64,000 nt of DNA, from NCBI GenBank assembly GCA_025451775.1, contig JANWJU010000131.1, positions 1,421 to 65,420 of the forward strand, in the 5' to 3' direction. A model generated the notes under the pieces. It made no database searches and was not told the origin of the DNA. It saw only the letters and a program-made list of their open reading frames with translations. A program made the translations under genes and the position numbers. The stretch comes from Terriglobales bacterium. Lineage in GTDB: Bacteria > Acidobacteriota > Terriglobia > Terriglobales > SCQP01. Shown one piece after another: positions 46,616 through 57,200 of this stretch (positions are counted from its first letter, which is position 1; each line of letters starts with the position of its first letter).

Positions 46616-47395
46616 ATGGCGGACGGTTTTATCTGGTATGAACTCATGACCCATGACGTCGACAAGGCCGCCACTTTCTACAAGAAGGTGGCCGAATGGG
46701 ACATCAAGGACGCCGGCATGCCCGGTATCCGCTACATGATTTTCGGAAAAGACGGCAAGGACGTCGGCGGCATCATGTCGTGGGCGGAAGCTGGTGTGCC
46801 CGGGATGCCTTCCGAGTGGGTGGGGCACATCCACACAGCGAAGCTTGATAAAGAATTGAAAGCTGTGACCGCCGATGGCGGCGCCGTGATCCAGCCCGCG
46901 CAGAACATCCCCGGCGTGGGACGTTTCGCCGTTGTGCTCGACCCGCAAAAGGCGAAGTACCTGCTCTTTGAACCGGAGCGAAACGACACTCCGCCGCGTC
47001 TCGATCAGATGGCGGTGGGCAACGTGGGCTGGCATGAGCTGCTCACCGATGATCCAGCCCGAGCCTTCGATTATTACTCCGGGCACTACGGCTGGGAAAA
47101 GGATTATGCGCATGACATGGGAACCATGGGCACCTACCAAACGTTCCGGACCGACAAGCCCAGCTATACCGGAGGAATGATGGCTCGCAAGGGCCCGGGT
47201 ATGCCCGAAGGTATTCCGCCGCACTGGCAGTACTACATCACGGTCGGCGATATCGAAGCCGCACAGAAACGTGTGATCGAGGCCGGCGGTACAGTGCTTC
47301 TGCCTCCCATGGATGTACCCGGGGGCTCGCGCATTCTGCAGGCGCAGGATGACCAGGGCGGCCACTTTGCGCTGATGCAGGGGCCGAAGTCGTAA
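46616..47395 (+). CDS. VOC (glyoxalase/bleomycin-resistance fold) family protein, two-domain
   Basis: 259 aa with duplicated ..WYEL/WHELLT..GG.. modules typical of tandem VOC domains. Confidence 0.8.
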   Translation: MADGFIWYELMTHDVDKAATFYKKVAEWDIKDAGMPGIRYMIFGKDGKDVGGIMSWAEAGVPGMPSEWVGHIHTAKLDKELKAVTADGGAVIQPAQNIPGVGRFAVVLDPQKAKYLLFEPERNDTPPRLDQMAVGNVGWHELLTDDPARAFDYYSGHYGWEKDYAHDMGTMGTYQTFRTDKPSYTGGMMARKGPGMPEGIPPHWQYYITVGDIEAAQKRVIEAGGTVLLPPMDVPGGSRILQAQDDQGGHFALMQGPKS

Positions 47396-47521
47396 CCGCA
47401 GCGTAGGTCATGGATGGGCGCGGCGGTTCTACACCCGGAAGAAGCCGCACTGGGCCGGGCAGCACTCATTGCCGCACCCGCAACCGGCACGCCCTTTCCG
47501 GGCCCGCGTCGGGCGTCTCAC

Positions 47522-48631
47522 TCACGCCACCGGGTCCAGCACCAACTGCCACACCTGCATCCGCCGCGCGCGGAAGCCGGCGGCCGAGGCCAGCAGGTAG
47601 TACTGCCACATGCGGCAAAAGGCCAGACCGTACTTCCGCTGCCACTCCTCCCAGCGTCCGGCAAAGTTCGCGTGCCAGGCCATCAGCGTGCGGTCGTAAT
47701 CCGGGCCCCAGTCGCGCCACTCCAGCGGCAGGAAGTGGTCCTCCATCGCGGTGCCGAGCTGCTGGATCGAGGGTAGGTGCGAGTTGGGGAAGATGTACTT
47801 CTCGATCCAGGGGTCGGTGGCATGGACGGTGCGGTTCGAGCCAATCGTTGAGAGGTACATCCGCCCATCGGGCCGGAGCACCCGGCGCGCGACTTCGAAA
47901 AACGCGCGGTAGTTCTTGTACCCCACGTGCTCGAACATGCCCAGCGACACCACCCGGTCAAACCGTGCGTTCGCCTGGACCTCGCGGTAATCCTGCAGCT
48001 TGAGCTCGACCGGTAACCCGGCGCAGCGCTGCTCACCGAGTGCCCGCTGCTCCTGCGACAGCGTGATGCCATACACCTGCGCCCCGTACTTCTCGGCGGC
48101 GAACTGGGCAAAGCTTCCCCAGCCGCAACCAATATCCAGCACGCGCATGCCGGGCGCCAACTCCAGCTTGCGGCAGACCCAATCGAGTTTCGCCTCCTCG
48201 GCGGCATCCAGCGTGGCGGCCGCGCGCCAGTAGCCGGTGGTGTAAACCATCCGCCGCCCCAGCATCGCCTCGAAGATATCGTTGCCGGCATCGTAATGCC
48301 GCCGCGCCACCGCACTCGACCGCTTCCGGCTCTGGCGGTTGAACAGCGTGGCCCGCAGCCACAACCCGGCCGCCGCCCAGCTCCGCGCCGCTACCCGGTC
48401 CAGCCCCGCGCTCATGACCCGGTCGAAAAACTGGTCCAGGTGCGCACACTCCCACCATCCGTCCATATAGGATTCGCCCAACCCCAGCGAACCATCCCGC
48501 AGCACGCGTCCGTAAAATTTGGGGTTGCGGACAGTGATGTCCCAGGGCCGGCGCCCGTGAATGTCCACTCCGGCCCGCTCCAGCAGATGCCGTGCCCGGG
48601 TTTCCAGCGGATGCCCCATAACTGCGCCCAT
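47522..48631 (-). CDS. cfa: Cyclopropane-fatty-acyl-phospholipid synthase
   Basis: ..LGLGESYMDGWW.., SAM motif VLDIGCGWG and ..VSLGMFEHVG... Confidence 0.92.
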   Translation of the reverse strand: MGAVMGHPLETRARHLLERAGVDIHGRRPWDITVRNPKFYGRVLRDGSLGLGESYMDGWWECAHLDQFFDRVMSAGLDRVAARSWAAAGLWLRATLFNRQSRKRSSAVARRHYDAGNDIFEAMLGRRMVYTTGYWRAAATLDAAEEAKLDWVCRKLELAPGMRVLDIGCGWGSFAQFAAEKYGAQVYGITLSQEQRALGEQRCAGLPVELKLQDYREVQANARFDRVVSLGMFEHVGYKNYRAFFEVARRVLRPDGRMYLSTIGSNRTVHATDPWIEKYIFPNSHLPSIQQLGTAMEDHFLPLEWRDWGPDYDRTLMAWHANFAGRWEEWQRKYGLAFCRMWQYYLLASAAGFRARRMQVWQLVLDPVA

Positions 48632-48662
48632 TCTACCTTAGGCGCGGCGGCGGCAGCGGTGG

Positions 48663-48692
48663 TTGCTTTGCGCCCTTGTTCCGCCCTATACT
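48663..48692 (+). promoter_or_regulatory. Candidate sigma70-type promoter of the cys leader
   Basis: TTGCTT (48663-48668), an 18-nt spacer, then TATACT (48687-48692). The -10 ends 10 nt before the leader ATG, implying a very short or absent 5' UTR. Confidence 0.4.
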
Positions 48693-48702
48693 AAAGGCGT
48701 TC

Positions 48703-48789
48703 ATGAGCCTGAATCCTCTCATGCCTGTCTCCTGCCGCTGTCGCGCTTGTGCGTGTTGTCAGTCGGCGGAGGGGTGTGATCTGGGTTAG
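48703..48789 (+). CDS. Putative Cys-rich leader peptide (28 aa, 6 Cys)
   Basis: ATG AGC CTG AAT CCT CTC ATG CCT GTC TCC TGC CGC TGT CGC GCT TGT GCG TGT TGT CAG TCG GCG GAG GGG TGT GAT CTG GGT TAG translates to [28 protein letters not shown]. Five of the six Cys codons are TGT. The stop codon lies inside the antiterminator stem. Confidence 0.55.
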
Positions 48790-48826
48790 CGGCTCAACCA
48801 AGCTACACAGATTCCCACCCGCCGCC
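48764..48826 (+). promoter_or_regulatory. Putative antiterminator hairpin of the cys leader
   Basis: CGGCGG(48764-69)/CCGCCG(48821-26), GGGTG(48772-76)/CACCC(48816-20), ATCTG(48779-83)/CAGAT(48808-12) and GGTT(48784-87)/AACC(48796-99). Its 3' strand overlaps the terminator 5' arm. Confidence 0.5.
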
Positions 48827-48852
48827 GGCCTAGCACCGGCGGCGGGTTTTTT
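48818..48852 (+). terminator. Intrinsic terminator in the cysD leader
   Basis: CCCGCCGCCGG-cctagca-CCGGCGGCGGG is an 11-bp perfect GC-rich stem followed by TTTTTTATT. It ends 19 nt before the cysD ATG. Confidence 0.8.
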
Positions 48853-48871
48853 ATTGAGAAGAGAGCGAAAG

Positions 48872-49816
48872 ATGGCAACCAGTACGGTCATGGAATCGGC
48901 GGCGGCGGGGGCGGCGGACTCCGGCGCCCATCTGCGCATGCTCGAAGCCGAGAGCATCTACATCCTGCGCGAAACGGTGGCGACGGTCGCCCGGCCAGTG
49001 ATGTTGTACTCAGTGGGCAAGGACTCGACGGTCATGCTGCGCCTGGCGGAGAAGGCGTTTTATCCCGGCCCGATTCCCTTCCCCCTGATGCACATCGACA
49101 CCGGCTACAAGTTCGAGGAGATGATCACCTTCCGCGACGAGCAAGCCCGGCGCGTGGGCGCCCAACTCATCGTCCACACCAACTGGGCCGCCAAGCGCGA
49201 CGGCGCCCACCCCTCCAAGATCGGCACCAAGCGCTGCTGCGGATTGCTCAAGACGCAGGCACTGCTCGATGCCCTGGCCGAGAACGGCTTCGACGCAGCC
49301 TTCGGCGGCGCCCGCCGCGACGAGGAGAAATCCCGCGCCAAGGAGCGCATCTACTCCTTCCGCGACACCGCCGGGCAATGGGATCCGAAGAACCAGCGCC
49401 CCGAGCTCTGGAACCTCTACAACCCCCGCCACCACGACGGCGAGAGCCTGCGCATCTTCCCCCTCTCCAACTGGAGCGAGCTCGACATCTGGCGCTACAT
49501 CGAACGCGAAAGACTCCCCATCGTGCCCCTCTATCTCGCCCAGGAACGGGAGGTCATCCAGCGCGGCAAATCGTTGTTGCTGCCGGAGGAAAAGGGCGTG
49601 GATCCGCAGCCCGGCGAGACCCTCATCAAGGTGCAGTGCCGCATGCGCTCGCTCGGTTGCGCCCCCTGCACCGGGGCCATCCGCTCCAATGCCACCACGG
49701 TCTCGGACATCGTCCGCGAAATGGCTACCTTCCGGCGCTCGGAACGCGAGAACCGCGTCATCGACCACGACGAGGAAGGCTCGATGGAGATCAAAAAGCG
49801 CGAGGGGTACTTCTAA
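48872..49816 (+). CDS. cysD: Sulfate adenylyltransferase subunit 2
   Basis: ..[67 protein letters not shown] is near-collinear with E. coli CysD. Confidence 0.97.
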
Positions 49817-49820
49817 ACTC

Positions 49821-51518
49821 ATGGCCGCCACCGACCTACTCACGCCCACCGCTCTCGGCCTGCTCCGCTTCACCACCTGCGGCAGCGTTGACGACGGCAA
49901 ATCCACCCTCATCGGCCGTCTTCTCCACGACAGCAAATCCATCTACGAGGACCAGATCGAGTCGGTGCGCCGCCGTCCCGGCGGCGCCGCCGCGCAGGGG
50001 ACCGGCGGGCTGGACTTGGCGCTGCTCACCGATGGCCTGCGCGCCGAACGCGAGCAGGGCATCACCATCGATGTCGCCTACCGCTACTTCTCCACCCCCC
50101 GCCGCTCCTTCATCATCGCCGACACGCCCGGCCACGAGCAGTACACCCGCAACATGGCCACCGGCGCTTCCACCGCCGACGCCGCCATCGTGCTGCTCGA
50201 CGCCAGCAAAGGCGTGCTCACCCAATCCCGCCGCCACGCCCACATCGCCCGCCTGCTTGGCATCCCCTGCCTCATCGCCGCCGTCAACAAAATGGACCTC
50301 ATGGACTACCGCCAGGATGTCTTCGAGGCCATCGCCGCCGACTTCCGCGCCTTCGCCGCCCGCCTGGGCTGGCCCCGCGTCTACGCCCTGCCAGTGAGCG
50401 CGCTGGCCGGCGACAACGTCGTCAGCCGCAGCGACTCCATGCCCTGGTTCCAAGGCCCGCCCCTGCTCGAGTACCTGGAGACGGCGCCGCTCGCCGCCGC
50501 CAGCGCCGCCGCGGCCCCGTTCCGCTTTCCGGTGCAGTTGGTGCTGCGCAGTGCGAGCTCTGCCGACCGCGGCGAGTTCTTCCGGGGCTTCGCCGGCGAA
50601 GTGGTCAGTGGCACCGCCCGCCGCGGCGACCCGGTGCGCATCTTCAACGCCGGCACCGCCGACAAAAAGCTTGAGGCCCGCATCGACCGCATCGTCACCC
50701 TGGACGGCGACCTCGAGGCCGCCTCCGCCGGCAGCGCCGTCACCCTCACCCTCGATCGCGAATTGGACATCGGCCGCGGCGACATCCTCGCCCCCGCGGC
50801 CACCAGCGACGCCGCTGCCCTCACCACCGCCCGCCGCGTCCGCGCCCGCCTGGTCTGGATGGACACCACCGCCTCCCAGCCCGGCACCCTCTACTGGCTG
50901 CACCACTCCACCCGCGCCGTCCGCGCCCGCATCGCCCACATCGATCACCGCGTCGACGTCAACACCCTCGAACACCACCCTGCCACCCGCCTCAACGTCA
51001 ACGACATCGCCCAAGTCGAGATCGAGGCCCGCCTGCCGCTCAGCTTCGACCCCTACGAGCAGAACCGGCGCATGGGCGCCTTCATCCTGATTGATCCCGC
51101 CACCAACGCCACCGCCGCCGCCGGCATGATCGACGCCGCCGCCGACGAAGGCAGCGCCGGCGCCGCCCTCACCGAAGAGGATCGCCGCCGCCGCTGGGGC
51201 CATCCCGCCCTCGGCGTTTGGCTGGACGACCGCCTCGACCTCGCCGCCCAACTCGAACGCGCCCTCGATGCCCGCCTCTGGAACGCGGTGCGCGTCGATA
51301 CCTCGGCTTACGGCGCCGCGGAACTCGCCGCCATCGCCGCCGTGCTCCGCTCGGCTGGCGCGGTGGCCGTGTTCGCTGGATCTTCAACCGCCGGTTCCGC
51401 CGATGCCCGCAAGGCCGCCGCTTCCGCTTTTGCCAGCTCGGAATGGTTGACGCCAACCGGCGATTGCGATGCGATCCTCGCCGAACTCGAGGGCCGCGGC
51501 GAGCAGGAGGACCAGTGA
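49821..51518 (+). CDS. cysN: Sulfate adenylyltransferase subunit 1 (GTPase) with a degenerate APS-kinase-like C-terminal extension
   Basis: Motifs GSVDDGKSTLIGRL, DTPGHEQY and NKMD. It has about 125 residues beyond the usual CysN end. This tail aligns loosely to CysC, but DDRLD occupies the place of the P-loop. Confidence 0.93.
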   Translation: MAATDLLTPTALGLLRFTTCGSVDDGKSTLIGRLLHDSKSIYEDQIESVRRRPGGAAAQGTGGLDLALLTDGLRAEREQGITIDVAYRYFSTPRRSFIIADTPGHEQYTRNMATGASTADAAIVLLDASKGVLTQSRRHAHIARLLGIPCLIAAVNKMDLMDYRQDVFEAIAADFRAFAARLGWPRVYALPVSALAGDNVVSRSDSMPWFQGPPLLEYLETAPLAAASAAAAPFRFPVQLVLRSASSADRGEFFRGFAGEVVSGTARRGDPVRIFNAGTADKKLEARIDRIVTLDGDLEAASAGSAVTLTLDRELDIGRGDILAPAATSDAAALTTARRVRARLVWMDTTASQPGTLYWLHHSTRAVRARIAHIDHRVDVNTLEHHPATRLNVNDIAQVEIEARLPLSFDPYEQNRRMGAFILIDPATNATAAAGMIDAAADEGSAGAALTEEDRRRRWGHPALGVWLDDRLDLAAQLERALDARLWNAVRVDTSAYGAAELAAIAAVLRSAGAVAVFAGSSTAGSADARKAAASAFASSEWLTPTGDCDAILAELEGRGEQEDQ

Positions 51519-52267
51519 CCACGAACTCACACGGGAACGCAATGGACGCCACCTCACCCGAGCAGATCATCGCCGCCGTGCTCGCGGCCCACCCCGGCGA
51601 GCCCGCCTGCTTGACCTGCAGCTTCCAGATCGAGGACATGCTGGTGCTCGATCTGTTGCGTGCCCATCAGCCCGGTATCCCGGTGCTGTTTCTCGAAACC
51701 GGCTATCACTTTCCCGAGACCTACGCCTACCGCGACCGCATGACCGCACTCTGGCATTTGAACCTGGTCAACGTCATGCCCGATTACACCGTGGCCGAGC
51801 AGGAAGCCGAACACGGCCGGCTCTACCGCACGGACTCGAAACGCTGCTGCCAGCTCCGCAAGGTCGATCCCCTGATGCGCGCGCTGCGACCCTACCGGAC
51901 TTGGTTTACCGGCCTGCGCCGCGTCCAGTCGCCCAGCCGCAGGAACCTTGCCGTGAGCGAAATCCACGTTCTGCCCACCGGCGAAAGCCTGCGCAAGATC
52001 AGCCCGCTGGCGCTGTGGGATGACAAAGAGCTCTGGCGTGCCGCCCACGCCCGTGGCATCGAAGCCTTGCCGCTCTACGCCCAGGGCTATACCAGCATCG
52101 GCTGCGCGCCCTGCACCGCTATCCCCGCCGCCGGCGCCGATCCCCGCTCGGGACGTTGGGGCGGCGATCATCTCGAGTGCGGCATCCACACCGCCACCGT
52201 TGCGCGCGGCAGCGAATTGGGGGCTGCGTCCCCTCCCCGTGATCCTGGTAACGGAGCGCCTGAGTGA
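51515..52267 (+). CDS. cysH: Adenylyl-sulfate (APS) reductase-type CysH, thioredoxin-dependent
   Basis: ..KRCCQLRKV.., ..SIGCAPCT.. (the CC...CxxC Fe-S signature of APS reductases) and the C-terminal ECGIH. GTG 51515 overlaps the cysN stop. An alternative ATG lies at 51542. Confidence 0.9.
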   Translation: MTTNSHGNAMDATSPEQIIAAVLAAHPGEPACLTCSFQIEDMLVLDLLRAHQPGIPVLFLETGYHFPETYAYRDRMTALWHLNLVNVMPDYTVAEQEAEHGRLYRTDSKRCCQLRKVDPLMRALRPYRTWFTGLRRVQSPSRRNLAVSEIHVLPTGESLRKISPLALWDDKELWRAAHARGIEALPLYAQGYTSIGCAPCTAIPAAGADPRSGRWGGDHLECGIHTATVARGSELGAASPPRDPGNGAPE

Positions 52268-53097
52268 TCGAAATTGCCCTCGGTTTCGTGATCGCCCTCT
52301 CGGTCGGACTCACCGGCCTCGGCGGCGGCAGCTTCACCACGCCCTTGCTGGTCCTGTTTTTAGGTCTGCCCGCCGCCGCCGCCGTGGGCACGGCGCTGGC
52401 TTTTTCCGCCGTGCTGCGCCTGCTCGCCGCCCCCTTTCATCTGCTCGGCCACAACGTCCGCGCCCGCTGCTTCTGGCCGCTGGTCCTGGGCGGATTGCCC
52501 GGCTTGACGCTGGGCATCTATTTTCTGCGGGGCATGCGGGGCGCCGACTGGAGTCCCAAGCTGCTGATCGCCTTGGGCGTGCTGCTGGTCGGCACCGCCT
52601 GTGCCAGCCTCTTTGGCCCCCGCCATTCGCTCGATTCCACCCCCCGCCCGCAAGCACGTGAGAAGCGTAAATCGCACGCTTGGCTGGCGCTATTGGCGCT
52701 ACCGATTGGCATGGAGACCGGCTTCTCCTCGGCCGGCTCGGGCGCGCTGGGCGTGCTGGCCCTGCTCAACTTCTCTGACCTTACCGCCGCCGAGGCCGTG
52801 GGTACCGATCTCGTCTTCGGCAGCGTCCTCGCCGTCGCGGGCGCCGGTTGGTCGGCGGGTTTGGGCCTCACCGCCACCCACCTCCTCACCCGTCTGCTCA
52901 TGGGCGGCGTCCCAGGCGTGCTCATTGGATGCATGCTGGGCAAGCGTCTGCCCGCCCGCCGCCTGCGCGCCCTGGTCATGGGCGCCGTGCTGGTACTGGG
53001 CCTGGGCTTGGTGTGGAGCGGTATCCACAGCTTTGGCGCGCCGCCTGTTGCCCGCCGCACCGCCCCCGCCGGCGGTTTCGCCGCAACGATCCGTTAA
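52264..53097 (+). CDS. TauE/SafE (TSUP, DUF81) family anion permease
   Basis: GTG overlapping the cysH stop (GTGA). 277 aa, about 8 TM, ..GLTGLGGGSFTTPLLV... Confidence 0.85.
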   Translation: MIEIALGFVIALSVGLTGLGGGSFTTPLLVLFLGLPAAAAVGTALAFSAVLRLLAAPFHLLGHNVRARCFWPLVLGGLPGLTLGIYFLRGMRGADWSPKLLIALGVLLVGTACASLFGPRHSLDSTPRPQAREKRKSHAWLALLALPIGMETGFSSAGSGALGVLALLNFSDLTAAEAVGTDLVFGSVLAVAGAGWSAGLGLTATHLLTRLLMGGVPGVLIGCMLGKRLPARRLRALVMGAVLVLGLGLVWSGIHSFGAPPVARRTAPAGGFAATIR

Positions 53098-53174
53098 TGA
53101 GTCGCTGCCCGCGGGCGCGGCCGCCGCGCTCACGGCGAACCGCTCGTGTATCATGAGCCTGATTACCGGAGAAA

Positions 53175-54236
53175 ATGCTCATGAGTCTTCACTGTCTTCG
53201 CTACGCCTCTTTAATCGCCGCCGCTTGGGTCACCATGGCGGTGACGCCGCTCGGCGCGGGGCGGCTGGCGGCGCAATCGCCCGCTGCACCGTCCCCGGTC
53301 CCCGCTCCGGTTTTTCTCTGGCCCAATGGCGCGCCCGGCGCGCCCGCAACCTTGGCCGCGACGCCGCAGGATCAGCCCCGCCTTTATCCGTTCCTCCCGG
53401 CGGCGCGCACCACCACCGCCGCCGTGCTGATTATTCCTGGCGGCGGCTATAGCGGCGTCGCGCTCGACCTGGAAGGCTTCCAGTTCGCACGCTGGCTCAA
53501 CGCCCAGGGCATGGCCGCGTTCGTGCTCGACTATCGCGTCGCGCCTTACCGCTATCCGGTTGAAATCGAAGACGGCATGCAGGCCATGCACCTCATTCGC
53601 GCGCACGCCGCCGCCTACGGCATTGATCCCGCGCGCCTGGGCGTCTGGGGCTCCTCCGCCGGCGGACACTTGGCCTCGACGCTGGGTACGCATTGCGGCG
53701 CCGGTGCCGCACCGCTGCCGCAATTGGAATCACTCGATAACGCCGGCTGCCACCCCGATTTCATGATCCTCACCTACCCGGTCATCACCATGGAACTGCC
53801 GATGACCCATCACGGCTCCCGCAACAATCTTCTTGGTCCGACCCCTGACCCGGCGCTGGTGTCGGCCCTCTCCAACGAAACCCAGGTCACCGCGCAGACC
53901 CCGCCCACCTTCCTGGTGGCCACCACCGGCGACCCTGTCGTGCCCATCGGCAATAGCCTCGCCTTCTACCAGGCGCTGGTGCAGACCCACGTCCCTGCCG
54001 AGATGCACGTGTATGATTTCGCCCGCCACGGCTTCGGCCTCGCCGGCACCACGATTCCCTACTTGACCGATTGGACCGGCCTGCTGCGCAACTGGCTGGT
54101 TCACGTCGACGTGCTGCCCGCCGATGCACCGCCGCCACCTGCTCCGGTGGCCAACGCCAACCCCTCCTGGCCCGCCGGCTTTACCGGCCCCGGTCAGCCC
54201 CGGCCGCGCCGCAGACCCGCCGTTCCTAATAGCTAA
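53175..54236 (+). CDS. Secreted alpha/beta hydrolase (esterase)
   Basis: Signal peptide, ..IIPGGGYSG.. and the nucleophile elbow GSSAGGHL. Confidence 0.85.
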   Translation: MLMSLHCLRYASLIAAAWVTMAVTPLGAGRLAAQSPAAPSPVPAPVFLWPNGAPGAPATLAATPQDQPRLYPFLPAARTTTAAVLIIPGGGYSGVALDLEGFQFARWLNAQGMAAFVLDYRVAPYRYPVEIEDGMQAMHLIRAHAAAYGIDPARLGVWGSSAGGHLASTLGTHCGAGAAPLPQLESLDNAGCHPDFMILTYPVITMELPMTHHGSRNNLLGPTPDPALVSALSNETQVTAQTPPTFLVATTGDPVVPIGNSLAFYQALVQTHVPAEMHVYDFARHGFGLAGTTIPYLTDWTGLLRNWLVHVDVLPADAPPPPAPVANANPSWPAGFTGPGQPRPRRRPAVPNS

Positions 54237-54260
54237 GCGCTAACAGCTAATAGCTTTTCG

Positions 54261-57200
54261 CTATTTTCCATCCCCGCTCAGCCGGCGATAATAGGCTGCC
54301 ACGGCATCCTGATAGCCCGCCGGCGCCGCCTCCGGGACCGTATCGCGGATCTGCCCCGCGCTGCCGGTGTCGTCCAGCTGCTTCCGCACCTGCAGTTCGA
54401 GCGCGTCGGCGGTCGCCAGCAGCTGCTGCCGCGCCTGCTCCACCGCTTGCGGGTTGCCGGGGAAACGGCTGGGATCGAGCGCCTGCATCTGCTTGATGAA
54501 GGCGTCGATCTGTTTCTGCACGGTGGGGTCTTGGGGCAGGTCCGGACGCAGCCGGTTCAGCGCCTCCATATCCTGCTGGATCTCCCGCTGCGTGTCGGCG
54601 GGGTTGGGACCGGCCTGCGGCGCCACCGCCTGACCTTGGATCCGCGTGTTGCCGGTATCGTAGCCGCCGTAGTTGCCACCATTGCGGTTGCCGCCACCAG
54701 CCACGTCCCCGATCCGGCCATCGAGAATACCGCCGTTGCGCCCCAAGTTGCCGTTGGCGCCGGCGATGCGGTTGCCGACCGGGCCGGCGGTGGGATTTCC
54801 CTGCCGGTTGCCGTTGGCGGCGTTCGCACCACCCTGCCCGCCGTTGCGCCCTCCGCCTTGGCCACCACCTTGGCCACCGTTACGCCCGCCGCCACTCTGG
54901 CCGTTCTGCGCGCTCTGCTGGCCCTGGCCACTCTGCTGACCGGCCTGATTCCCAGCTCGGCTCCCGGCTTGGTTCCCACTTTGCCCCTGACCGCTCCGGC
55001 TCAGCCCGCCGGGTTGGAACTGCTGTCCCGCCGGTCCGGAGCGATTGCCCTGATTGCCTTGGTTGCCCGGCTGCCCCGGAGTACCACCGAGCGCGGCAAT
55101 CTGCTGCCGCAACCGCTCGATCTGCGACATGGCCCCGGCCAGCGCGGCGTTCGGCTGATTGGCCGCGCTCGGCGTGAGCGCCTGCTGGGCCTGCCGCAAT
55201 CCATTGGCCAGCGCCTGCAGGTCGCTACTGAGCGTGGTTTCGCTGTCCGGGCTGGCATCGCCGTTGCGCAGCCAGTCCGCGCTGCGCTGCAGCCGCGTGC
55301 CCAGATCCGAGCCGTCGGCGGCGGTGATGGCGTCCCGCAGCTTGGTGCTGGCCCCAGGTTGGGCTCCACTCAGGTCCCGCGCCGCGTTGCGCATCGCCGC
55401 CTCGAGTTGGTCGTAGGCATTCGAGACCTGCTGCCGCTGCTGCACCAGGCTGTCCACCTCCGCCGGGGTGGCTTGTTGCGTGCCCGCCGCATACTTCCGG
55501 ATCTGATCCGCCTGCTGCTTTTGCGTCTGCGCCAGTTGGCCGGCTTCGCCCGCCATCGCCGCCAAACGTTGGTCGGCGTTCTGCCCTTGCATGGCGGCCA
55601 AGGCTTGGCGCGCCTGCCGCAGCGCCGCCGCCGCCTGCGCGGCGTCAGCCGCCGCCTGCGCCGGACTCTGGTTTTGCTGCTCCGACCGCTGCATGGCGGC
55701 GTTCGCCTCCCGCAGCCGGTTCAGCGCCGCCTGCGCCGCTTGCTGTTCGGCCGAGGCCGCGCCCGCGGCTGATGCCGCCGAACTACCGCTGCGCCCACCG
55801 GCGCTCTGGGAACCGGAAGGCGATCCGCTCGACGAACTCGAGGCCGATGCAGACGAACTCTGTCCGCTCTGTCCGCTCTGTCCGCTCTGCCCGCTCTGCC
55901 CGCTCTGGCCGCTTTGGCTATTTTGCTGGTTGAGCATCGACTGCAACTGCTGCTGCAACTGCTCCGCTTCGCGCCGCAGCATATCCTGCTGCCAGCGCTG
56001 TTGCGCGCTCTGCGCCAGATTGTTCCGGTTCTGCGCCAACTGCTGCTGCCGCTGTTCCAGATCATCCAATTTCTTGAGCGTGTCGTTGATCGACTCGGAT
56101 TTCTGCTCCGACGCCGACGCCGTCTGCTGCGTCTCGTACTGGTTCTTCTGCGTATCGAGTTCCAGATCGAAGATGCTCGCCAGATCGCGCGCCGCGCTGC
56201 CTCCTCCTCCGCCGCCACCGCCGCGGGCGCCAAAGGCAACCTGGATCTTCAGGAACGTAGCCTCCGCCTGCAGCAGCGAGCGCAGCGCCTTCTCCTCGTT
56301 GGGAATCGCCGCGCTCCACTTCTCGCCCTTCAAGCTGGTTGCGGCCGGCGACATGGACGCTGCCGCCGCATCCATATCCTTCTGAAAATCGCTAAACGCC
56401 TGGTTCTCGTCCGTCAGCTCCCGCGACTGGATGCGCCCTGACAGCGAGACCGCCTGGTCGTGCAGCGTGGTCTGCGACTCCGACAACAGCCTCGAGGTAT
56501 CGGCCGCGAGCTTGTTCTTGGCCGCCGAGGGGGCGCTGTTGTCGCCCTGCTGCTTAAACGTACCGGCGATGATCTCCTTTTCCCGGTCAACAATCTGGGC
56601 TGCGGTGTTGCCCTGGCCTCCGCCGCCTCCGCCGCCCCCGCCGCCCGCCTGCTGCGATTGCGTGAAATCGCGCTCGAACGGATCCGCCTGGATGAACATC
56701 ATGTCCGAGCGTGCCGGTCCGCGCGCCGTATCCCCGTCGGCGGCGCTGGCGTAGACGCTGACCAGGTCGCCCGGCTTGGCGTGGAAGGACTCGAACGAGA
56801 TCACCGTCTGCCCATCGGCCTTCTTGGCCCCTTGTTGCGGCAGCAACGTGACCGTTTTATCCGGCCCGCCGTTGATGGAGTAGTGCAGCGCAAACTCTTT
56901 CAGCCCGAACTGATCACTCGCTTGGGCCGCGACCGTCACCTCTTCGATCGGGCTGGCGCGGTAGTCGCCTCGGGGACGCACCAACGCCACCTGCGGCGGC
57001 GCCGGCGGCGGCGCGGCCAGGAAATAATCCTCGGAAATGCGCGTGGGCTGGCTCGGATCTTCACCCGCAATCTGCGCGGCCACGTGATAGAGGCCGTCCT
57101 TCTCCATGTCGATGACGCCACGATATTGATTGCCGCCGAGCGGCGCCAGCTTGACCTGCTGCGGGTTGCCGGCGCCGTCGTCGACCACCAGCACGCCGCC

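Follow-up and report, generated by a model that had tools for sequence, protein, structure and literature searches.

A putative cysteine-sensing leader-peptide attenuator upstream of cysD-cysN-cysH-tauE in a Terriglobales bacterium and its relatives in Acidobacteriota

Introduction

What is the role of a short open reading frame (ORF) crowded with cysteine codons that lies, followed by an intrinsic terminator, directly upstream of the sulfate-assimilation genes cysD-cysN-cysH-tauE? The question arises from a 64,000-nucleotide (nt) stretch of DNA of a Terriglobales bacterium (contig JANWJU010000131.1 of assembly GCA_025451775.1), referred to here as the window, whose positions are used as coordinates. 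A sequence-only reading of this DNA had proposed a Cys-sensing attenuator in front of cysD. To our knowledge, no cysteine regulator has been described in Terriglobia-type Acidobacteriota, and the regulation of sulfur assimilation is essentially undescribed across this phylum, which is among the most abundant in soil.

Leader-peptide attenuation is textbook knowledge for trp, his, leu, thr, ilv and phe. The elements found in the window, their predicted folds and their recurrence in related genomes suggest that this leader is a ribosome-mediated, cysteine-specific transcription attenuator of the trp/his/leu type, acting on cysD-cysN-cysH-tauE, a reading to which we give a probability of roughly 0.8.

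Results

A leader ORF rich in a minor cysteine codon

The ORF and its Cys cluster are located as follows.

48703..48789, + strand: leader ORF, ATG at 48703 to TAG at 48787-48789, 28 codons plus stop, read from the sequence
48733..48759, + strand: sensor codons, five Cys in nine codons (codons 11-19), TGC and then four TGT

Six Cys codons are present in total, TGC at 48733 and TGT at 48739, 48748, 48754, 48757 and 48775, and both the frame and the clustering of five of them within nine codons agree with what the sequence-only reading had described. The ORF is enriched in the codon for the end product of the operon downstream, as are the leader peptides of classical attenuators, and it carries two consecutive Cys codons (C18-C19) upstream of cysDNH, the feature by which the mycobacterial poly-Cys ORFs are recognized. 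In the public copies of the locus this ORF has no gene annotation. Open frames of at least 350 codons across the window, whose G+C content is 66.5%, contain 229 TGC and 44 TGT codons, and TGT is therefore the minor Cys codon in this DNA.

Mutually exclusive folds in the leader transcript

Four regions of the leader can be assigned to two alternative structures.

48704..48745, + strand: region 1, 5' strand of a long hairpin within the ORF (anti-antiterminator), with region 2 as partner in the minimum free energy (MFE) fold
48762..48797, + strand: region 2, end of the ORF plus stop codon, with region 1 or region 3 as partner
48762..48829, + strand: antiterminator hairpin (regions 2:3), 26 pairs, -36.5 kcal/mol
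48817..48853, + strand: intrinsic terminator (regions 3:4), stem of 12 base pairs (bp), 7-nt loop and T6, -27.4 kcal/mol

The stem of the terminator (48817-48847) consists of 11 G-C pairs and one A-U pair and is followed by T6 at 48848-48853, being by far the strongest terminator-like site found by a consensus scan of 47500-54500. Because only 18 nt separate the end of the T-run from the cysD ATG (48872), no separate cysD promoter fits in between and cysD would have to be transcribed through the terminator. The antiterminator reaches over 48816-48829 and engages 11 of the 12 bases in the 5' arm of the terminator, which pair with positions -24 to -12 relative to the stop codon. Since the 3' strand of the antiterminator is the 5' arm of the terminator, both structures are predicted to exclude each other. 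When 48760-48830 is folded alone, the antiterminator has a z-score of -4.05 and none of 200 shuffles is as stable. For the whole leader (48695-48860), the MFE of -78.2 kcal/mol corresponds to a z-score of -3.6, with 1 of 200 shuffles as good, and the fold comprises the long hairpin inside the ORF (48704-48797, regions 1:2) and the terminator, leaving the Shine-Dalgarno (SD) region of cysD (48856-48868) unpaired.

A comparison with the sequence-only reading shows that its terminator before cysD and its competing hairpin are both present and mutually exclusive, with different limits: the stem has 12 bp instead of 11, and the antiterminator spans 48762-48829 instead of 48764-48826. Its placement of the stop and last codons inside the 5' half of the antiterminator holds, region 2 including both. 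The 1:2 hairpin was missing from that description, and with it the layout becomes the full four-region arrangement of the trp type.

The effect of a ribosome was mimicked by making a stretch of 31 nt unpairable and refolding the leader in silico, which gave the following outcomes.

No ribosome: 1:2 hairpin plus terminator
A-site at Cys11 or Cys13: antiterminator in the full-length MFE, terminator 0 of 12 pairs
A-site at Cys16: antiterminator (11 of 12) in the nascent RNA lacking the 3' arm
A-site at Cys18 or Cys19: region 2 partly covered
A-site at the stop codon: terminator 12 of 12, antiterminator 0 of 12

These modelled folds agree with the earlier proposal that a stalled ribosome would favor the antiterminator and a finishing ribosome the terminator, and in them the first three Cys codons (C11, C13 and C16) are likely the effective sensors.

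Two exclusive structures with a terminator are also the architecture of a riboswitch expression platform, and the UGU triplets recur at codon-like spacing. The leader could then be a switch that binds a ligand or a protein, either an unknown riboswitch or a TRAP-like protein acting on UGU repeats, with the ORF being incidental. However, a search of the leader against Rfam 15 (E <= 10), a check that the sequence-only reading had suggested, gave best scores of 14-20 bits against gathering thresholds of 37-100, and no family passes. The sub-threshold matches are small RNA families that align to the terminator hairpin, and they were discarded as generic terminator matches. Moreover, the subfamilies of homologous leaders described below share no aptamer-like core, and a switch of this kind needs none of the features that are conserved, namely the start at a fixed distance from the -10 element, the in-frame Cys codons and the stop codon in region 2. 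We consider this explanation very improbable.

Recurrence of Cys-rich leaders upstream of cysD

Relatives of CysD were collected from species-representative genomes (L001-L080) and metagenomes (L081-L160), giving 155 usable upstream regions. The best relatives in the genome and metagenome scans are 72-74% identical, and almost all of them belong to Acidobacteriota (Acidiferrales, Korobacteraceae, Acidobacteriaceae, Terriglobus, Granulicella, Terracidiphilus and others). The Cys score of a region was defined as the maximum number of Cys codons per 8-codon stretch of a short ORF located at most 350 nt upstream of cysD. Among the first 80 regions, a score of at least 4 was reached by 19 in the forward direction, by none of the 80 reverse complements and by 31 of 4000 dinucleotide shuffles, so the Cys density of the leader recurs in 0.8% of shuffles. 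Over the 155 regions, a Cys-rich ORF is found in 74 with at least 3 Cys and in 47 with at least 4. For acidobacterial genomes, about 30 of 51 loci carry such an ORF; the cysD loci of the Bryobacterales and Solibacter type are mostly without it.

The leader peptides form several dissimilar subfamilies, with conservation restricted to the Cys run and to the segment coding for the antiterminator strand. The subfamily of the window (with L001, L074, L082 and L083) follows the pattern M.L.PLM...C.C.CC, and the lower stem of its terminator, ACCCGCC/GGCGGGT, is invariant. The median ORF length across leaders is 30 codons, compared with 28 in the window. That a small ORF with Cys codons and a similar geometry persists upstream of cysD in many Acidobacteriota is the outcome that the sequence-only reading had named as its conservation check; together with the Rfam result above, it means that no refuting condition which that reading had set for computation came true. 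Also, the 74 leaders contain 277 TGT and 81 TGC codons (77% TGT), whereas the cysD genes of the same loci, with a mean G+C content at third codon positions of 0.73, contain 40 and 305 (12% TGT; Fisher P = 7e-75). Together with the long frames of the window, these counts confirm that the five TGT among the six Cys codons, already read as non-preferred usage from the single sequence, depart from the usage of the surrounding genes, and they show that this codon choice characterizes the leaders as a class.

This pattern of conservation bears on the possibility that the product itself matters, the ORF being a functional Cys-rich micropeptide (metal- or redox-binding, or similar to the precursor of a ribosomally synthesized and post-translationally modified peptide) or an independent small RNA that merely adjoins cysD. 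Cys-rich small proteins do exist, the element has its own promoter-like elements and terminator from which a discrete transcript of about 150 nt would be expected, and attenuator RNAs and peptides can act in trans, as rnTrpL/peTrpL do. Nonetheless, conservation of the peptide is limited to the Cys run and the part coding for the antiterminator strand; none of the four leader peptides searched against Pfam and NCBIfam matched a family; the ORF favors the minor Cys codon, opposite to the neighboring genes; the element is tied to cysD across lineages; and no space is left for a cysD promoter after the terminator. An independent product of this sort is thus a distinctly unlikely explanation.

Chance is a further alternative, since G+C-rich DNA gives many spurious ORFs and hairpins and other short Cys frames occur in the window, so that TGT and TGC triplets in intergenic DNA could simply lie beside an ordinary hairpin. 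The one other Cys frame that was read (281-424) was rejected as a leader, being TGC-only and contained within a longer open frame. The rarity of such Cys density in shuffles and its absence from the reverse strand, the z-scores of both folds, the recurrence of the arrangement in dozens of genomes and the duplex tests on terminator arms described below leave chance with almost no weight. A scan of the whole 64-kb window for further poly-Cys leaders, in which one match was inspected, revealed no second leader, and no match adjoins a recognized sulfur gene.

Other Cys-rich frames were also observed. In two metagenome-assembled genomes (MAGs) of Zetaproteobacteria (L063:2259-2318 and L066:2189-2311), a conserved small ORF, M(A/V)PALC(S/N)GW(P/R)CCDSALC..., is located upstream of cysD, and a CCC-containing ORF occupies this place in a MAG of Solirubrobacterales (L078:2140-2226). 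All of them may represent independent Cys leaders of other phyla. Short TGT-rich poly-Cys ORFs away from the immediate cysD leader are present at L133:244-273, L133:455-550 (minus strand), L081:783-866 and L006:5057-5137, encoding for example MCCRCCCRR and ...MCCMCICR, and some of them face divergent or downstream genes.

Comparative evidence for the alternative folds

An intrinsic terminator follows the ORF stop codon in 49 of the cysD upstream regions, at a median distance of 29 nt (interquartile range 26-35; 27 nt in the window). The arrangement occurs, for example, in Granulicella sp. (L036), a relative that can be cultured. In the full MFE of these leaders the terminator forms in 45 of 49 and the 1:2 pairing in 38 of 49, where the partner of region 2 is a region 1 situated close to the Cys cluster or upstream of it. 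Folds computed without the 3' arm were examined closely for 17 leaders, and in 16 of them the terminator 5' arm finds its partner in the last 4-29 nt of the ORF; in most homologues this partner falls at -29 to 0 relative to the stop codon.

Because the columns of MAFFT alignments miss the helices, each member of the window subfamily having its own register, tests that need no alignment (per-sequence folds and duplex energies) were adopted; the duplex tests were applied to 43 non-redundant leaders. The duplex between the final 33 nt of the ORF and the terminator arm of the same leader has a mean energy of -15.8 kcal/mol, compared with -7.8 for the preceding 33 nt (Wilcoxon 9e-8) and -5.2 for the sequence after the stop codon. 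Moreover, own arms are better partners than the arms of other leaders (-13.5) in 200,000 of 200,000 permutations (P <= 5e-6), and the first 17 leaders alone already give P = 2e-4 for cognate against non-cognate arms. Without the 3' arm, the RNAalifold consensus of one 17-member subfamily ('...CCLCC..VSSGxGRLV') matches the antiterminator helix exactly, UCUGGC..GG..GG with CC..CCGCCAGA, which includes one compensatory C-G/U-A pair.

A second family of cysD leaders, ...CC(C/R)LSNIFDGC..., is found in L016, L019, L021, L024, L030, L032, L135, L143, L149, L152, L153 and L155 (for example at L032:2213-2320 and L024:2178-2321). Its LSNIFDG codons form a perfect hairpin (CCUGUCGAAC-AUC-UUCGACGGG), and the downstream ACACCCG(CC) could alternatively pair with GACGGGUGU. 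No intrinsic terminator was detected after the ORF in these leaders, whose output may be translational. In L032, two more poly-Cys ORFs (L032:182-229, MQTIFTKVACCCCLR; L032:301-420, ...ACCCCCRCRALLLRG) precede L032:466-1971, a gene for an outer-membrane porin of the Alginate_exp family located upstream of the cysD leader, which hints that several operons share control by Cys leaders as a regulon.

The same Cys-tRNA-sensing ORF could also act in the window through a translational or Rho-dependent output, the hairpin and T-run being mainly an element of structure or stability. The only experimentally dissected poly-Cys leader, Ms5788A, sequesters the Shine-Dalgarno sequence (10.1101/834739), and the LSNIFDGC-type leaders, with a Cys ORF and no detectable terminator, suggest that such outputs probably exist in the phylum. 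For the window, however, a stem of 12 bp, 11 of them G-C, followed by T6 makes the hairpin an intrinsic terminator of textbook form, and the SD region of cysD is unpaired in the MFE, so SD sequestration in the absence of a terminator, which defines the mycobacterial output, is not what is found here. In addition, a stem and T-run follow the ORF in 49 leaders and the ORF tail complements specifically the terminator 5' arm. An output of this other kind is accordingly unlikely for the window leader, although less so than the other alternatives.

Promoter and start of the leader transcript

The candidate promoter elements precede the ORF closely.

48663..48668, + strand: candidate -35, TTGCTT, weak (3 of 6 matches), 18-nt spacer to the -10
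48687..48692, + strand: candidate -10, TATACT, ending 10 nt before the leader ATG

This position of TATACT is the one given by the sequence-only reading, which had also raised the idea of a nearly leaderless ORF. A consensus promoter scan of 47500-54500 did not flag the leader promoter, its -35 being too weak; it is kept as a candidate because the spacing of the -10 recurs across genomes. In 55 of the 74 leaders a -10-like hexamer (A2, T6 and at least 4 of 6 matches) precedes an in-frame start by 3-13 nt, against a background of 9% per ATG, roughly 20% per leader. The gap between the hexamer and the start codon has two peaks, 6-7 nt in 28 leaders and 10 nt in 16, the window being one of the latter, and TTGnnn occurs 16-19 nt from the -10 in 26 homologous leaders. 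This spacing suggests that transcription of the leaders starts at the start codon or a few bases before it and that they are translated without a leader, so that the near-leaderless idea would extend to the whole class. For the window, it implies a 5' untranslated region of about 0-4 nt and a transcript without a Shine-Dalgarno sequence, true leaderless initiation being uncertain. Leaderless genes have been predicted at 10-19% in three Acidobacteria (Zheng et al., PMC3160421).

The leader promoter shares a divergent intergenic region of 240 nt with a methyltransferase gene, and a G/C-rich stretch, GGCGCGGCGGCGGCAGCGGTGG, is found at 48641-48662 between this gene and the promoter.

47522-48631, minus strand: cyclopropane-fatty-acid-synthase-like methyltransferase gene (PF02353)
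48632-48871: intergenic region between the divergent methyltransferase gene and cysD

Just after the methyltransferase stop codon, a frame at 47429-47521 (minus strand) has 4 Cys in 8 codons (…GCGCGNECCPAQCG…); it is not tied to sulfur genes and probably reflects chance in DNA of 66% G+C.

The downstream operon and copies of the locus

The genes downstream of the terminator are the following.

48872..49816, + strand: cysD, sulfate adenylyltransferase small subunit (NF003587, 444.6 bits)
49821..51518, + strand: cysN, sulfate adenylyltransferase large subunit without adenylyl sulfate (APS)-kinase domain (gene call in L161-L164)
51515..52267, + strand: cysH, APS/phosphoadenylyl sulfate (PAPS) reductase (NF002537, 230 bits), start GTG 51515 or ATG 51542
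52264..53097, + strand: tauE/safE-family sulfite exporter-like membrane protein (PF01925, 124 bits), last gene of the apparent operon

Their stop and start codons overlap or, between cysD and cysN, are 4 nt apart, which supports a cysD-cysN-cysH-tauE operon. CysN has no fused APS-kinase (CysC) domain and extends about 100 residues at the C terminus past the CysN model. The best score of the reductase is as phosphoadenylyl-sulfate reductase, the APS-reductase subfamily also being matched below its cutoff. The operon shows no cysC, and this would be compatible with direct reduction of APS.

The locus is also present in the NCBI MAG GCA_036553825.1 (contig DATBOM010000081.1) and in the JGI metagenomes 3300035174-3300035177 and 3300035697. 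These copies (L161-L166, equivalent to 47372-51316 of the window) have 0-5 differences per 2.6-3.9 kb, none of them in the leader.

Discussion

Proposed mechanism

The leader ORF, the terminator and the antiterminator are present in the window, the latter two are predicted to be mutually exclusive, and conservation, co-variation and geometry are observed across many genomes. All sequence-level elements of a classical leader-peptide attenuator are thus found together, and from them we infer the transcription start site, the translation of the ORF, the stalling, the termination and the physiological response. Transcription would start at the leader AUG or a few bases before it, from the -10 at 48687-48692, and the 28-codon ORF would be translated leaderless, or nearly so, while RNA polymerase is still on the leader. 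If Cys-tRNA is plentiful, the ribosome would reach the UAG at 48787 and cover region 2 (48762-48797), regions 3:4 would form the terminator (48817-48853) and transcription would end at about 48853, 18 nt before cysD. In the absence of a ribosome, regions 1:2 would pair and the terminator would form too. Finally, if Cys-tRNA is scarce, the ribosome would stall at the first Cys codons (48733-48750, Cys11-16) and hold region 1; region 2, freed in this way, would pair with the terminator 5' arm (antiterminator, 48762-48829), and the polymerase would read through into cysDNH-tauE. UGU, a minor codon read by wobble, is probably decoded more slowly and would thereby make the response sharper. A minor sensor codon has a precedent in the E. 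coli leu leader (leuL) with its rare CUA codons.

Several points weigh against this reading. The whole case is built on sequence and predicted folds. Stalls at C18/C19 partly mask region 2 in the masked folds and C25 sits within it, so not all six Cys codons can sense; the last one, Cys25, is probably a by-product of the G/U-rich sequence of region 2. In a five-member alignment of the window subfamily by MAFFT, which leaves the helices unaligned, 54% of the antiterminator cells pair in the window register and shuffles are not clearly exceeded. Also, the permutation test of the terminator arms ignores kinship within subfamilies. The -35 of the window is weak, and the distance between its -10 and the ATG is 10 nt instead of 6-7 nt. 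Finally, the leader is identical in every copy of the locus, and no within-species variation is available for use.

Comparison with known systems

The closest resemblance in layout is to the enterobacterial attenuators trpL, hisL, leuL, thrL, ilvL and pheL. As in these, a short ORF has clustered codons for the pathway's final product, a 1:2 hairpin and a 2:3 antiterminator that overlaps the 5' arm of the 3:4 terminator precede the first structural gene, and the stop codon is placed so that a finishing ribosome would block region 2. However, the leader of the window would sense cysteine, its operon is cysDNH-tauE, it belongs to Acidobacteriota and it has no sequence similarity to them. Moreover, the enterobacterial leaders are led by a Shine-Dalgarno sequence, whereas the window ORF appears leaderless or nearly so.

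This last trait recalls M. smegmatis, where leaderless poly-Cys small ORFs (Ms5788A, the 'Cys ribulon') attenuate translation via SD sequestration (Canestrari et al. 2020, 10.1101/834739); a 2026 paper still calls the mycobacterial poly-Cys leaders translational (PMC13236596). In both systems clustered or consecutive Cys codons occupy a short, unannotated ORF upstream of cysteine or sulfur operons, placed at the very 5' end of the transcript in mycobacteria and probably at or near it in the window; the sensor in both would be ribosome pausing on Cys codons, and both elements recur in many species with conservation of the Cys tract only. Nonetheless, Ms5788A unmasks a downstream SD and has no terminator, whereas the window leader has a conserved terminator and antiterminator with the cysD SD unsequestered, and the two belong to different phyla without homology.

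Regarding transcription attenuation specific to Cys, the closest prior prediction is uORFC-8-2, a Cys-codon upstream ORF with a terminator predicted before cysS in Rhodobacterales (Brewer et al. 2021, PMC8632094). It is likewise a predicted ribosome-mediated attenuator, with Cys codons in the upstream ORF, two stems and a terminal U-run. However, it controls a tRNA synthetase gene in alpha-proteobacteria and has two tandem Cys codons, mostly UGC, at about positions 14-15, whereas the leader described here precedes a biosynthetic gene, cysD, in an acidobacterium and has 5-6, mostly UGU. This element is absent among the Rfam matches to the window leader.

Also, Cys leader peptides were predicted upstream of cys operons in Actinobacteria by Seliverstov et al. 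(2005, PMC1262725), who found neither a terminator nor alternative hairpins and proposed Rho dependence. Those leaders are short ORFs with Cys runs near the stop codon, which precede cys operons in Mycobacterium and P. acnes and cbs in B. longum. In comparison, the leader of the window carries all the classical attenuator elements. The sequence-only reading had known of no description in Acidobacteriota or for cysDN, and full-text literature, incompletely covered, likewise yielded nothing on Cys leaders in Acidobacteriota or on a terminator-based Cys leader at cysD; the predictions of PMC1262725 and PMC8632094 show, on the other hand, that prior art is wider than the mycobacteria to which that reading had referred.

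Significance

What is new here is the combination of cysteine with cysDNH, the phylum, and the leaderless and minor-codon traits. If the proposed mechanism is true, this would be the first case of a biosynthetic operon under a cysteine attenuator that uses a terminator. Transcription attenuation by leader peptides of the classical kind would then reach cysteine biosynthesis and a new phylum, and it would be linked with the leaderless poly-Cys small ORFs so far known only from mycobacteria. The TGT bias, 77% in the leaders versus 12% in cysD, provides an unusually clean case from nature in which a minor codon decoded by wobble is selected for in a sensor. Moreover, the 49 terminator-bearing leaders could seed a family model, none being found in the Pfam, NCBIfam and Rfam matches.

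With a little over even confidence, we propose that Terriglobia-type Acidobacteriota control sulfate assimilation, and possibly wider sulfur genes, by leaderless poly-UGU leader ORFs, which would mostly be classical terminator/antiterminator switches tuned by a wobble-read minor codon, with a sister architecture that lost the terminator and acts differently. Such an element is not surprising in principle, yet it covers much of an abundant and poorly studied phylum, for which it provides, in dozens of genomes and MAGs, a cis-regulatory mechanism concrete enough to be tested.

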